Source: Armatimonadia bacterium
GTDB taxonomy: Bacteria; Armatimonadota; Zipacnadia; Zipacnadales; UBA11051
NCBI GenBank assembly: GCA_039683575.1
Contig: JBDKRC010000168.1
Span: 1 to 18,903 of the forward strand
DNA: 18,903 nucleotides
Reading direction: 5' to 3'
In this document: one piece after another, positions 1 to 15,643 of the stretch
Position numbering within the stretch: the stretch's first letter is position 1
Layout of the letters: each line of letters begins with the position of its first letter
Made by a program: the position numbers and the translations under genes
Notes under the pieces: model-generated
Database searches by the model: none
Seen by the model: only the letters and a program-made list of their open reading frames with translations
Told to the model about the DNA's origin: nothing

Positions 1-67
1 CCAGATCATCCGGCAGCATGTCGAGCACATATCGCCACTCAGTTCCGATAAGCTCGGTGATTTCCAT
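1..67 (-). CDS. Partial (5' end only) probable IS4-family transposase, MEITELIGTEWRYVLDMLPDDL...
   Basis: Translated by hand from ATG at 67-65 and open to the window edge. The W-x-x-x-L-x-x-LP-x-DL pattern resembles N-termini of some IS4 transposases. It lies just inside the putative IR. Only 22 aa are visible. Confidence 0.55.
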   Translation of the reverse strand, partial: MEITELIGTEWRYVLDMLPDDL

Positions 68-102
68 GCTACAAGTGTAGCCGGAACCGGGATGGACGTA
101 AA
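68..102 (-). promoter_or_regulatory. Putative sigma70 promoter for a leaderless IS transposase transcript
   Basis: Minus strand: TTTACG (102-97), 17 nt, TACACT (79-74), 6 nt, ATG (67). No Shine-Dalgarno. The -10 lies within the palindrome GCTACA-AG-TGTAGC (68-81). Confidence 0.45.
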
Positions 103-123
103 GAGCTTAAGTTTACGCGTATG

Positions 124-344
124 CCCCTTCGGGGTCACCGACTATAGCCAGGGGTGCAACCCCTGGTACCACCGCCATACCTCTCCAGGACCCCGAAAGG
201 ATCGCCAGACACCGCCGGGGAGCGCTCCGCCAAACCCACACCGTTCCCGCCGTCTGACCCCAACGGGGTCACCGAATATAGCCAGGGGTGAAACCCCTGG
301 TACCATCGCCATACCTCTCCAGGACCCCGAAGGGGTCACCCGCC
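124..344 (+). repeat. REP-like palindromic cluster (2 units, 134-bp spacing) directly downstream of the Y1 transposase
   Basis: Hairpins CCCC-TTC-GGGG (124-134), CCAGGGGT-GCA-ACCCCTGG (148-166), degenerate GACCCC-GAA-AGGATC (189-203), TGACCCC-AAC-GGGGTCA (255-271), CCAGGGGT-GAA-ACCCCTGG (282-300) and GACCCC-GAA-GGGGTC (323-337). Same family as 15167-15643. Confidence 0.92.
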
Positions 345-345
345 T

Positions 346-850: not shown

Positions 851-1882
851 TTACAACTCCACCGCCCGCCCCGTCTCCGCCGCCTCCACCATCGCCACCA
901 GCGCCTTCGTTATCTGCAGCCCGTCCTCGCCCGTGATCAGCGGCGTCTCGTCCCGCAGGCAGCAGTTCACGAAATGCTGGAAAGCCTGGTACACAAACCC
1001 CACCGGCACTCCCATCACCTCGCCATACAACGTCCCACGGTCGCTTTCCTTGGCATTTGTGGCCATCTGGAAAGTCGGCCGCGCCGGGTCAATGTTGACA
1101 TACCCCTCAGTGCAGATCAGCTCGAACTTGCTGTCCACCATGTAGGGCATGCTCTCGGGCATGATCCAGCAACTCTCGAAGTTGCCCACGCACCCGTTCT
1201 CGAACTCCACCGTAGTCTGGTAGAAATCCGGCGTATCAATCCCCATGCTCTTGAGCTTCACCGACCGCGCCACCGCCGTGACTCGCTTGGCCTCCGACCC
1301 AAAGTACCACCGGGCGATGTCATACCGGTGGCAGATCAGCCAGAACGGAAGCTGCGTGTTGGCCGACCATGACAGCATCTTCGTCGGCACATACAGCGTG
1401 TTGTTCAGCCGCGCGTAGCAGTACAGCGGGTCGCCCAGCGCTCCCTGATCGAGGCTGTCCTTGGTCTGAGCAAACGAGTGCATCCAGCGGTTGGACCAGT
1501 TGACCATCAGCTTCTTGCCCGAAGCCTTCTGCGCCTTCAGAATCGCCTCGGCATCCTCGACAGTCGTCGCCATCGGCTTCTCAAGCAGCACGTGCTTGCC
1601 CGCCGCAAACGCCGCCTCCGCCACCTCCCGGTGCAGATGGTCCGGCAGCACCAGCGACACCGCCTCAATCTCCGGCATCGCGAAGAGCTCGTTGTAGTCG
1701 GTGAAAGCGTGCCGCGCCCCGTACTGCAGGGCAGCCGCCCGCGCCCGCTCTTCATTCAGATCGCACACCGCCAGCAGCGTAGCATCCGGCGCCACCGCCG
1801 CGCACTTGACATGGCTCTCCCCCTGCACCCCAGCGCCAACGACGCCATAGTTCAAATTTCCGGGAGCAAATGCCTCGATCAT
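851..1882 (-). CDS. Gfo/Idh/MocA family NAD(P)-dependent oxidoreductase, 343 aa
   Basis: Rossmann motif YGVVGAGVQG, H-x-L-x-EKP motif (HVLLEKPMA), strong SD AGGAGGT at 1896-1890. Confidence 0.93.
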   Translation of the reverse strand: MIEAFAPGNLNYGVVGAGVQGESHVKCAAVAPDATLLAVCDLNEERARAAALQYGARHAFTDYNELFAMPEIEAVSLVLPDHLHREVAEAAFAAGKHVLLEKPMATTVEDAEAILKAQKASGKKLMVNWSNRWMHSFAQTKDSLDQGALGDPLYCYARLNNTLYVPTKMLSWSANTQLPFWLICHRYDIARWYFGSEAKRVTAVARSVKLKSMGIDTPDFYQTTVEFENGCVGNFESCWIMPESMPYMVDSKFELICTEGYVNIDPARPTFQMATNAKESDRGTLYGEVMGVPVGFVYQAFQHFVNCCLRDETPLITGEDGLQITKALVAMVEAAETGRAVEL

Positions 1883-2078: not shown

Positions 2079-3437
2079 ATGCCTGACCGCTACTACATAG
2101 ACACCATGGGCTGCCAGATGAACGAGCGGGACTCCGAGACCATTGCCGGAGTGCTCGAAGGGCTCGGACTGGTCGCCACTCAAAGCCCCGATGACGCCCG
2201 CGTCGCCGTGCTGAATACCTGCGCCGTCCGCGAAAAGCCCGAGCACAAGGTCTTCTCTCGTCTCGGCGAACTGGCGCGCCTCAAGCAACGCCGGCCGGAG
2301 ATGGTCATCGCAGTCTGCGGCTGCATGGCCCAGGTGGGCGTGGACGAGATTCGCAAACGGGCGCCCTATGTGGACGTAATCCTCGGCCCCCGCAACCTCA
2401 AGTCACTCGGAGAAGCCGTCAAAAACGCTCTCTCTGGCCCTTGCATAACGGTATCCACCGACGTCGGCGAATGCCCTGACGAGAAGCTCCCGGCGGCGCG
2501 GACCCCGGGGCTCTCCGCCTTTGTCAACATCACCTACGGCTGTGACAACTTCTGCGCCTACTGCATCGTGCCCTATACCCGCGGCCGCGAGATCAGCCGC
2601 CCGGCAGACGAGATCCTCGCCGAAGTCCGCGGCCTCATCGCCGACGGCTACCGCGAGGTAACCCTCCTCGGCCAGAACGTGAACAGCTATCACAGCCCCA
2701 GTGAATCCGCTACCGTTGCCTGTAGGAGCGCTCACCAGAGCGCGATCGGGGACTCCATCACCTTCGCCCAACTCCTCCGCCTGGTCGGAGCTGTGGACGG
2801 CCTCTGGCGCCTGCGCTTCACCACTTCCCATCCCAAGGACCTCTCCGAAGACCTCCTGCGCGCCATTGCCGAGACCCCTGCCGCCTGCGAGCACCTCCAC
2901 CTGCCCATCCAGGCGGGCGATGACGTGGTACTGCAGCGCATGGGCCGCCGCTACACCTATGCTCACTACAAAGCGCTCGTGGACCGCGCGCGGGAGATCG
3001 TGCCGGGGATCAGCGTGACCACCGACGTCATGGCGGGCTTCCCTGGAGAGACCGAAGAGCAGTTCAACAACACCATGAGAGCCTTCGAGGAGATCCGCTT
3101 CGACCAGGCTTTCATGTTCAAGTACAGCGACCGTCCTGGAACGAGAGCGGCGAAGATGTCGGACAAAGTGCCCGAAAAGGTCAAGCAACAACGTCTGCAG
3201 CGCCTGGTTGACCTGCAAAACCACGTCGCGCGAGAGATCAACCAGGGACAACTCGGGCAGGTATTCGAGGTGCTGGTGGAGGGACGGGACGAAAAGTCAC
3301 CCGAGAAGATGCGGGGGCGGACGCGACAGAACAAGCTGATGATCTTCCCCGGCGACGAAAACCTCATCGGGAAGTTGGTCAACGTGCGCGCGGAAGAAGC
3401 CTATCTGTGGGGGTTTGTGGGGGTCTCGGAGGGTTAG
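2079..3437 (+). CDS. miaB: tRNA-2-methylthio-N6-dimethylallyladenosine synthase MiaB (radical SAM methylthiotransferase), 452 aa
   Basis: N-terminal TMGCQMN (MiaB-type), NTCAVRE, CGCMAQ, radical SAM motif CDNFCAYC, LLGQNVN, RFTTSHP, GFPGETEE, C-terminal TRAM domain. Confidence 0.96.
   Translation: MPDRYYIDTMGCQMNERDSETIAGVLEGLGLVATQSPDDARVAVLNTCAVREKPEHKVFSRLGELARLKQRRPEMVIAVCGCMAQVGVDEIRKRAPYVDVILGPRNLKSLGEAVKNALSGPCITVSTDVGECPDEKLPAARTPGLSAFVNITYGCDNFCAYCIVPYTRGREISRPADEILAEVRGLIADGYREVTLLGQNVNSYHSPSESATVACRSAHQSAIGDSITFAQLLRLVGAVDGLWRLRFTTSHPKDLSEDLLRAIAETPAACEHLHLPIQAGDDVVLQRMGRRYTYAHYKALVDRAREIVPGISVTTDVMAGFPGETEEQFNNTMRAFEEIRFDQAFMFKYSDRPGTRAAKMSDKVPEKVKQQRLQRLVDLQNHVAREINQGQLGQVFEVLVEGRDEKSPEKMRGRTRQNKLMIFPGDENLIGKLVNVRAEEAYLWGFVGVSEG
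2722..2746 (+). repeat. GTAG-type REP hairpin inside the miaB coding sequence
   Basis: GTAG-GA-GCGCTC-ACCA-GAGCGC-GAT, lying in an elongated loop after GQNVNSY. Confidence 0.65.
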
Positions 3438-15144: not shown

Positions 15145-15166
15145 TCCTGTGCGAGCACCCTTCCGA

Positions 15167-15643
15167 GCCGTCTGACCCCGAAGGGGGTCACCGATTATAG
15201 CCAGGGGTGAAACCCCTGGAACGCGCACCGCCAATGCCTTCTGACCCCAACGGGGTCACCCGCCGTTGGACCCCGAAGAGGTCACCGATTATAGCCAGGG
15301 GTGAGACCCCTGGAACACGCACCGCCATCACCTTACTCCCAACGGGGTTCTCCCGCCGCTGGACCCCGAAGGGGTCACCGAGCATAGCCAGGGGTGAAAC
15401 CCCTGGAACGCGCACCGCCAATGCCTTCTGACCCCAACGGGGTTCTCCCGCCGTTGGACCCCGAAGGGGTCACCGATTATAGCCAGGGGTGAAACCCCTG
15501 GAACGCGCACCGCCAATGCTCTCTGACCCCAACGGGGTTCTCCAGTCGTTGGACCCCAAAGGGGTCACCGAGCATAGCCAGGGGTGAAACCCCTGGAACG
15601 CGCACCGCCAATGCCTTCTGACCCCAACGGGGTCACCCGCCGT
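15167..15643 (+). repeat. Tandem array of 5 REP-like units (93-95 bp period), three hairpins per unit (BIME-like)
   Basis: Central hairpin CCAGGGGT-GA(A/G)-ACCCCTGG starts at 15201, 15295, 15388, 15483 and 15578. Each is preceded by a GACCCC-GAA-GGGGTCACCGANNATAG-type segment and followed by GACCCC-AAC-GGGGT, with small variants. Linkers are conserved, not unique. Confidence 0.96.

Follow-up and report, generated by a model that had tools for sequence, protein, structure and literature searches.

The window analysed here (18,903 nt) is an entire contig, C168, of an assembly of 352 contigs (6.23 Mb, 96% complete, 63.5% G+C). It opens with the end of an insertion sequence (IS) cut by the contig start, followed by two tandem REPIN-like units and a Y1 (IS200-like, RAYT-like) transposase gene (table 1). 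Because the window begins at a contig end, the body of the IS is unassembled and nothing can be read to its left. Beyond the Y1 gene lie ordinary neighbours, a gene for a GFO/IDH/MocA oxidoreductase (851–1882, minus strand) and one for a radical-SAM methylthiotransferase-like protein with UPF0004, Radical_SAM, and TRAM domains (2079–3437, plus strand).

Table 1. Features at the left end of the window.
Feature	Position	Strand	Remarks
IS left (transposase-start, A) end	1–123	−	100% identity to C10:1-113 and to the last 113 bases of C109; interior lies beyond the contig start
Transposase, first 22 codons	1–67	−	Translation MEITELIGTEWRYVLDMLPDDL; cut by the contig end; placed and oriented as the IS4 gene in L009
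Terminal inverted repeat	105–123		Plus strand GCTTAAGTTTACGCGTATG; from the tip inward CATACGCGTAAACTTAAGC
Target core CCCCTTCGGGG	124–134		Presumed right-hand copy of an 11-bp duplication; CCCC-N3-GGGG adjoins 6/6 ends
REPIN-like unit 1	124–206	+	90% identical to the unit at 258–340; first three bases (TGA) lie beyond the IS
Spacer between tandem units	207–254	+	Query 200–262 matched only C168 and C206 in the genome
REPIN-like unit 2	255–340	+	Two terminal hairpins (T)GACCCC-N3-GGGGTC(A); central hairpin CCAGGGGT-N3-ACCCCTGG
Y1 (IS200-like, RAYT-like) transposase gene	346–798	−	150 aa; Pfam PF01797, E 1.7e-25

The Y1 gene and the neighbouring repeats

A first reading of this DNA, made from the sequence only, had recognized a Y1 enzyme next to the repeats, and the profile searches agree: besides the Pfam match, the product reaches 68.5 bits with the NCBIfam IS200/IS605 model NF033573 (cut-off 55). 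The gene is single copy, and the repeats adjoin it on its 3' side only. Two paralogs, 47% and 38% identical, each lie beside a different repeat family. A single-copy gene with paralogs that each sit by their own repeats is the pattern expected of RAYT-type genes. The paralogs (C51:6700-7960 and C331:36850-38120, respectively) are also single copy. Around the former we observed a composite hairpin repeat GCCCCTTCGGGGC...CCAGGGCC..GGCCCTGG, and around the latter a repeat CCGGGATT.AAATCCCGG together with GCGTCCC..GGGACGC, so that three pairs of a RAYT-like gene and a repeat family occur in this genome.

The REPIN-like family of the window is built on an 86-nt composite unit with two terminal hairpins and a central one, and gave 43 HSPs in 27 contigs. 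The single-stranded DNA fold of window 252–345, which contains unit 2, has an energy of −22.7 kcal/mol (z = −4.5 against 200 shuffles). The same family forms a second, intergenic tandem array at window 15156–15641, of five units or more, which are 79–83% identical to the units at 124–345. Near the IS, the other copies open with (T)GACCCC (TGACCCCAACGGGGTCA at 255–271 and GACCCCGAAGGGGTCA at 323–338). As the sequence-only reading had remarked, the copy at 124 starts without the GA: positions 124–137 read CCCCTTCGGGGTCA, followed by CCGACTATAGCC. That reading had also described the first 11 flanking bases as a CCC-N5-GGG palindrome; this is contained in the 11-base palindrome at 124–134, which has 4-bp arms and a 3-nt loop and is best written CCCC-N3-GGGG.

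Ends of the element and probable family of its transposase

The same IS end was found on two further contigs: window 11–123 recurs with 100% identity as the first 113 bases of C10, at its left end, and as the last 113 bases of C109, at its right end. We name these three A ends (the transposase-start end), the opposite end of the element being B. The A-end copies in C168, C10, and C109 share the next four bases, CCCC, then diverge in the loop (TTC, GTT, and GTT, respectively) and diverge again beyond GGGGTCA. The terminal 19 bases recur in inverted orientation close to the ends of C206, C199, and C337 (B ends), where they border another internal sequence, and this 19-bp inverted repeat is perfect between the three A and the three B ends. 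The boundary proposed at position 123 is upheld by the identity among A-end copies, which stops in the hairpin loop, and by the repeat found at the three further contig ends, which is also the matching inverted repeat that had been expected. A blastn search of the genome with window 1–123 returned the three A ends only. Window 1–123 is one end of a multicopy IS, with at least three copies. At each end these copies are 100% identical over 93–123 nt, which points to recent transposition and therefore to an active transposase recognizing the 19-bp repeat.

All six IS-bearing contigs end exactly 127 bases into sequence shared between copies (123+4, 113+14, and 105+22). The assembler probably used a k-mer of 127, as a de Bruijn assembly with k = 127 would stop in this manner at a collapsed repeat. 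The IS accounts for at least six contig breaks in the assembly. Genome-wide, very many contig ends share overlaps of 120–127 nt with several other ends (3685 end-to-end HSPs), indicating several other multicopy, assembly-breaking elements. The smallest contig measures 1563 bp, and none is below about 1.5 kb.

The inverted repeat, in line with the terminal inverted repeats of the IS4 family, starts with 5'-CAT. Read inward, CATACGCGTAAACTTAAGC fits the IS231-subgroup consensus CAT-------AA--TAA at 8/8 positions (CAT at 1–3, AA at 11–12, and TAA at 15–17), as this signature is given in Table 1 of PMC2266710, the subgroup being that of IS231A of Bacillus thuringiensis. The signature sets the tip of the IS at the C of CATACG, that is, at window base 123.

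On the minus strand of the window, an ORF opens with ATG at position 67 and is truncated by the contig start. The B end contains a frame of 35 C-terminal codons, which finishes with ...RRRRSLEQVGLDWDQLSA and has its stop codon within the inverted repeat. Elements with the identical 19-mer were found in metagenomes. L009 holds a complete 1682-bp element bounded by this 19-mer, with a single ORF of 481 codons from stop to stop, while L010 and L012 hold a B end with the 3' part of a transposase gene. The proteins of all three end like the B-end frame, and their stop codons likewise lie in the repeat. In the IS4 family, the DDE transposase is the product of one ORF, with no frameshift (ISfinder; De Palmenaer et al. 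2008). The proteins of L009 and L010 (P0002 and P0003, respectively) match Pfam DDE_Tnp_1 (PF01609, E about 5e-18) and the NCBIfam IS4 model NF033592 (178.6 and 161.8 bits, cut-off 115), so that in both loci a gene for an IS4-family transposase adjoins the 19-mer. The Y(2)R(3)E(6)K motif, as defined in PMC2266710, is present in the two proteins (YGLRWRIEIIFKSWK in P0002, YSLRWRIEIIFKSWK in P0003). The best plasmid matches of P0002 are IS4 elements of the Bacillus cereus group labelled ISBce10 family, at only 23–25% identity.

The IS4/IS231-like type that had been proposed for the element thus agrees both with its end signature and with the DDE transposases of the elements that share its repeat. 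The family assignment of the window IS rests on its ends and on these same-end relatives, its own catalytic domain lying outside the assembly. From them we infer that the IS encodes a DDE transposase of the IS4 family. Of this enzyme, also expected by the sequence-only reading, the 22 N-terminal and 35 C-terminal codons are seen and the body is absent from the assembly.

Searches of the genome for the interior gave the following picture. With the P0002 protein as query, 0 matches were obtained in the genome. A blastp-short comparison of the two terminal peptides with all genome ORFs of at least 60 aa gave no related copy, peptides of 22 and 35 residues being too short for significant homology. 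The sole match to NF033592 above its cut-off is C279:396-1736 (127.5 bits), a different IS4-family transposase gene encoding 446 aa in another element, whose termini are unrelated to those of the window IS; C230 gave a weak match. A phmmer search with the 35-residue C-terminus against 1.84 billion representatives returned three proteins, of 739, 896, and 421 aa, which match in three to six short stretches; we judged them irrelevant.

These results bear on whether the genomic copies might be short MITEs made of the two IS ends only, their transposase being encoded elsewhere or lost. The interior is missing from the assembly, as are contigs below about 1.5 kb, the genome yielded no matching transposase, and MITEs with the same inverted repeat do occur in L006, L007, and G342. 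However, the A end retains an intact ATG and 22 codons, and the B end retains 35 codons that finish, with the stop in the repeat, as do the IS4 transposases of L009, L010, and L012. The recent transposition implied by the identical ends likewise calls for an active transposase. Moreover, an assembler would be expected to collapse several copies of an IS of about 1.5 kb, which could then easily be lost at binning. We therefore regard copies reduced to MITEs as improbable and favor a complete IS with its own transposase gene.

Probable insertion into the terminal hairpin

Read outward, 6/6 assembled IS ends abut CCCC-N3-GGGGTCA (CCCCNNNGGGGTCA). Each sits between the TGA and the CCCC of TGACCCC-N3-GGGGTCA, an interruption of the REP at the same position that corresponds to the "type 1 association" of Tobes and Pareja (2006). 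CCCCNNNGGGGTCA occupies 130 of about 12.46 million oriented positions, a background of 1.0e-5 each, and the chance of three independent insertions at it is about 1e-15. With all six ends in the identical hairpin against this background, the enrichment in REP hairpins proposed by the sequence-only reading is clear. Among the 312 CCCCNNNGGGG sites, 48 intact TGA..TCA hairpins and six IS-adjacent cores make up 54, about 17%. The chance of finding TCA at all six ends is roughly 0.005 for three events, and is not significant when only other REP-type hairpins are taken for comparison. The central REPIN hairpin, of GGGG..CCCC polarity, is unused by all six ends. The three A ends all face the unit body and the three B ends all face the outer boundary, which hints weakly at a fixed insertion orientation.

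The B-end flanks run into canonical outer boundaries: elsewhere in the genome, TCACCCGCC follows the hairpin 14 times and TCAGACGGCGG four times. As the A flanks lead into the repeat body and the B flanks into the outer boundary, the flanks together rebuild normal units plus one extra core. A canonical unit has one core and the interrupted unit one on each side of the IS. Given a full core on each flank against one per normal unit, the flanks are most simply explained by an 11-bp duplication of CCCCNNNGGGG; this explanation is drawn from separate ends, as no copy is assembled across both.

The palindromic arms leave the boundary between IS and flank unfixed when considered by themselves, and both ends show CCCC...GGGGTCA outward; the hairpin could accordingly be taken for a part of the element, within a 33-bp inverted repeat, rather than its target. 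L009 and L011 also carry long inverted flanks. Several observations make this very unlikely. The copies are identical up to CCCC, then vary in the loop (TTC, GTT, AAC) and past TCA, and their flanks continue canonical REPIN units without a shift of register. The 6.2-Mb genome contains 48 intact TGACCCC-N3-GGGGTCA hairpins devoid of IS. Across other genomes, C, G, or T may follow ...CGTATG, which indicates that the conserved repeat stops at ATG. Finally, the loops GTT (C10 and C109) and AAC (C199 and C337, read outward) are reverse complements. Such complementary loops in four ends are predicted by a direct 11-bp duplication and not by an extended inverted repeat. We therefore consider the hairpin as the target.

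For the end in the window, the probable mate is C206, to judge from the repeats around both. Window 207–262 matches C206 at 100% and 96% over 56 nt (query 200–262), and the units closest to the window unit are those of C206 (96%, 94%, and 92% identical), units of contigs other than C168 and C206 reaching at most 88%. The B-end flank of C206 consists of hairpin and spacer, and the A-end flank of the window of hairpin and unit body. As the spacer is common to C206 and C168 only, both belong to one tandem array interrupted by the IS. Written on one strand, the junctions are ...GTCTGA-CCCCAACGGGG/IS/CCCCTTCGGGG-TCACCGACTATAGCC. The mate flank that the sequence-only reading had predicted, ...GA-CCCCTTCGGGG, was not found: C206 reads ...TGA-CCCCAACGGGG, with agreement of the cores at 9/11 bases and both mismatches in the loop (AAC against TTC in the window). 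Hence either a single IS has an imperfect duplication, for which the hybrid flanks ascribed to recombination in ISRm22 (PMC1525189) offer a comparison, or the array contains two IS copies. In the latter case, the intervening piece would be shorter than the minimum contig of roughly 1.5 kb, which would also explain both missing mates.

Comparison with an empty site was attempted in three genus-mates, where genes are 66–82% identical, synteny is broken, and the Y1/REP region has no match. Among public sequencing runs, the best contained 0.36 of the sampled words. In four runs, sequences related to the Y1/oxidoreductase region were found together with many REPIN copies, and window 1–100 remained uncovered. 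One X2 contig runs left from window 130 into an intact ...TGACCCCAG hairpin, which is either the orthologous empty site or another repeat copy.

Altogether, we estimate at about 85% the probability that this is a recently active multicopy IS of the IS4 family, with IS231-type ends, which inserts in the terminal hairpin of REPIN-like repeats beside a Y1 gene. The DDE transposase would insert the IS into the hairpin TGACCCC-N3-GGGGTCA by staggered cuts equidistant from the 3-nt loop, where the CCCC/GGGG core meets its flanks. After repair of the gaps, the IS would have a copy of the 11-bp core CCCCNNNGGGG on either side. The IS thus lies inside a tandem array of the presumed cognate repeats of the Y1 gene, about 220 bp from that gene, and landing in intergenic repeats probably lets it multiply without gene breakage. 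Regarding the earlier proposal that the IS exploits repeats maintained by the neighbouring enzyme, its use of the family clustered beside the Y1 gene stands, and maintenance of this family by the Y1 gene is plausible.

Y1/RAYT enzymes are thought to move REPINs. With such a gene 220 bp away, the order of events might be reversed, the Y1 enzyme having placed REP/REPIN units beside pre-existing IS ends. This would demand two in-register half-units, each with a full core, flanking each of at least three IS copies, and, from the spacer common to C206 and C168, the IS is seen to interrupt a regular tandem array. Such a succession is extremely improbable, and insertion of the IS into existing repeats remains our preferred reading.

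Distribution of the 19-bp end and comparison with known elements

Window 1–123 was found in 0/40 relatives, from genus to order. When at most one mismatch was allowed, 18 matches to the 19-mer were obtained in G342, the sole genome with any among 400 others of the phylum. As G342 and L005, a Chthonomonadaceae locus, have identical flanks, they probably represent one record, which would assign the window's genome to Armatimonadota. Scans for the exact 19-mer identified five loci in GTDB genomes and four in JGI metagenomes. By chance alone, 596 Gb should yield about four matches, and the isolated, unsupported matches L004 and L008 may be of this sort; that of L004 lies inside a long ORF, without a hairpin. 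A scan of the metagenomes with a 34-mer of the IS interior gave 0 matches. The hosts of the 19-bp end are Armatimonadota-like, Bacteroidota, and uncultured, and the 19-mer is identical across phyla.

In most hosts examined, elements with this end sit on the loop of a small G+C hairpin. The hairpin targets are CCCC-N3-GGGG in the genome studied here, CCC-N3-GGG in L006 and L007, GCC-GCA-GGC in L008, and CCT-N3-AGG in L009 and L010. In a Cyclobacteriaceae genome, L006:1843-2019 and L007:2001-2181 are MITEs of about 180 bp, with 18- to 19-bp ends the same as those of the window IS. The L007 element is flanked as GCCCCAGAGGG/MITE/CCCAGAGGGGC, where the loop of a GCCCC-N3-GGGGC hairpin occupies the middle of a direct 9-bp repeat, and L006 shows the same duplication save for one loop mismatch. 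These 9-bp direct repeats lend independent support to a loop-centred duplication. Conversely, the related elements of G342, mostly MITEs and accompanied by transposase fragments only, at contig ends, occupy G-rich, non-palindromic sites, one of them with a 12-bp direct repeat (11/12 bases). Hairpin targeting is thus true of some, not all, elements with the 19-bp end. The full copy in L009 (L009:60-1830) is flanked by inverted, not direct, copies of about 25 nt (CCTGGGAGGGGGAGAAAATTGAGTA), which could correspond to a long palindromic target or to a longer true inverted repeat; this flank recurs at a second contig, L011:1-110. A broader view would be that this IS231-like lineage reads the shape of a hairpin or cruciform and not its sequence, and that it lives as a parasite on REP/REPIN families generated by Y1 (RAYT) enzymes in general, perhaps by way of the ssDNA hairpins on which these enzymes act; we hold this to be doubtful.

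According to PMC1525189, REP-targeting ISs are documented in five families, including IS4, represented by ISRm22, and palindromic target motifs are usual among the IS4-family elements of Table 1 of PMC2577343. The window IS is a REP/REPIN-targeting IS of an already-described kind, of which it is a further member. ISRm22 of Sinorhizobium meliloti (IS4 family, IS4Sa subgroup) is described with all nine copies in REP elements (PMC1525189, PMC2266710). Its insertion point is the axis of the palindromic consensus, and some copies have no perfect direct repeats, which is ascribed to recombination between copies (PMC1525189). ISRm22 belongs to another subgroup and makes 6-bp direct repeats, whereas the window IS has IS231-type ends and a probable duplication of 11 bp and comes from a different phylum.

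The duplication proposed here would fall within the range of about one helix turn, 7–13 bp, of the IS4 family (De Palmenaer et al. 2008), and within the 10–12 bp listed for the IS231 subgroup in Table 1 of PMC2266710. IS231A, with the target GGGNNNNNCCC, is reported to duplicate 11 bp of a palindrome bounded by G/C triplets (PMC2577343), and the window IS would likewise duplicate 11 bp of a palindrome; for IS231A, a MITE-like derivative, MIC231, exists. The GGG-N5-CCC target of IS231A, which the sequence-only reading had brought into the comparison, does not apply here: the window IS has CCCCNNNGGGG at 6/6 ends, of the opposite CCC..GGG polarity and within a REP hairpin. As of 2008, reports of the IS231 subgroup came almost exclusively from the Bacillus cereus group (PMC2266710).

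Other REP-targeting elements are more distant. IS1397/ISKpn1 and ISPsy8 (IS3 family) insert specifically into REP or BIME palindromes; for ISPsy8 the insertion point is invariant and coincides with the symmetry axis of the hairpin (PMC1525189). They differ from the window IS in belonging to another transposase family, in having two ORFs (OrfA and OrfB, described for ISPsy8), and in duplicating 3 bp. All copies of IS621, ISPpu9, ISPpu10, and ISPa11 (IS110 family) are described at one fixed REP position (PMC1525189). These four rely on DEDD recombinases and a bridge/seeker RNA and have 0- to 2-bp repeats and no classical terminal inverted repeats, unlike the window IS with its classical 19-bp inverted repeats and DDE-type relative.

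For biology at large, this is an arrangement of the expected kind, with no new mechanism. It provides a clear case, from a poorly studied phylum, of an IS landing in REP/REPIN hairpins, and it extends IS231-type ends far beyond the Bacillus cereus group. The 19-bp end common to several phyla, with its recurrent small-hairpin targets, offers a testable handle on the palindromic target choice of IS4-family elements.
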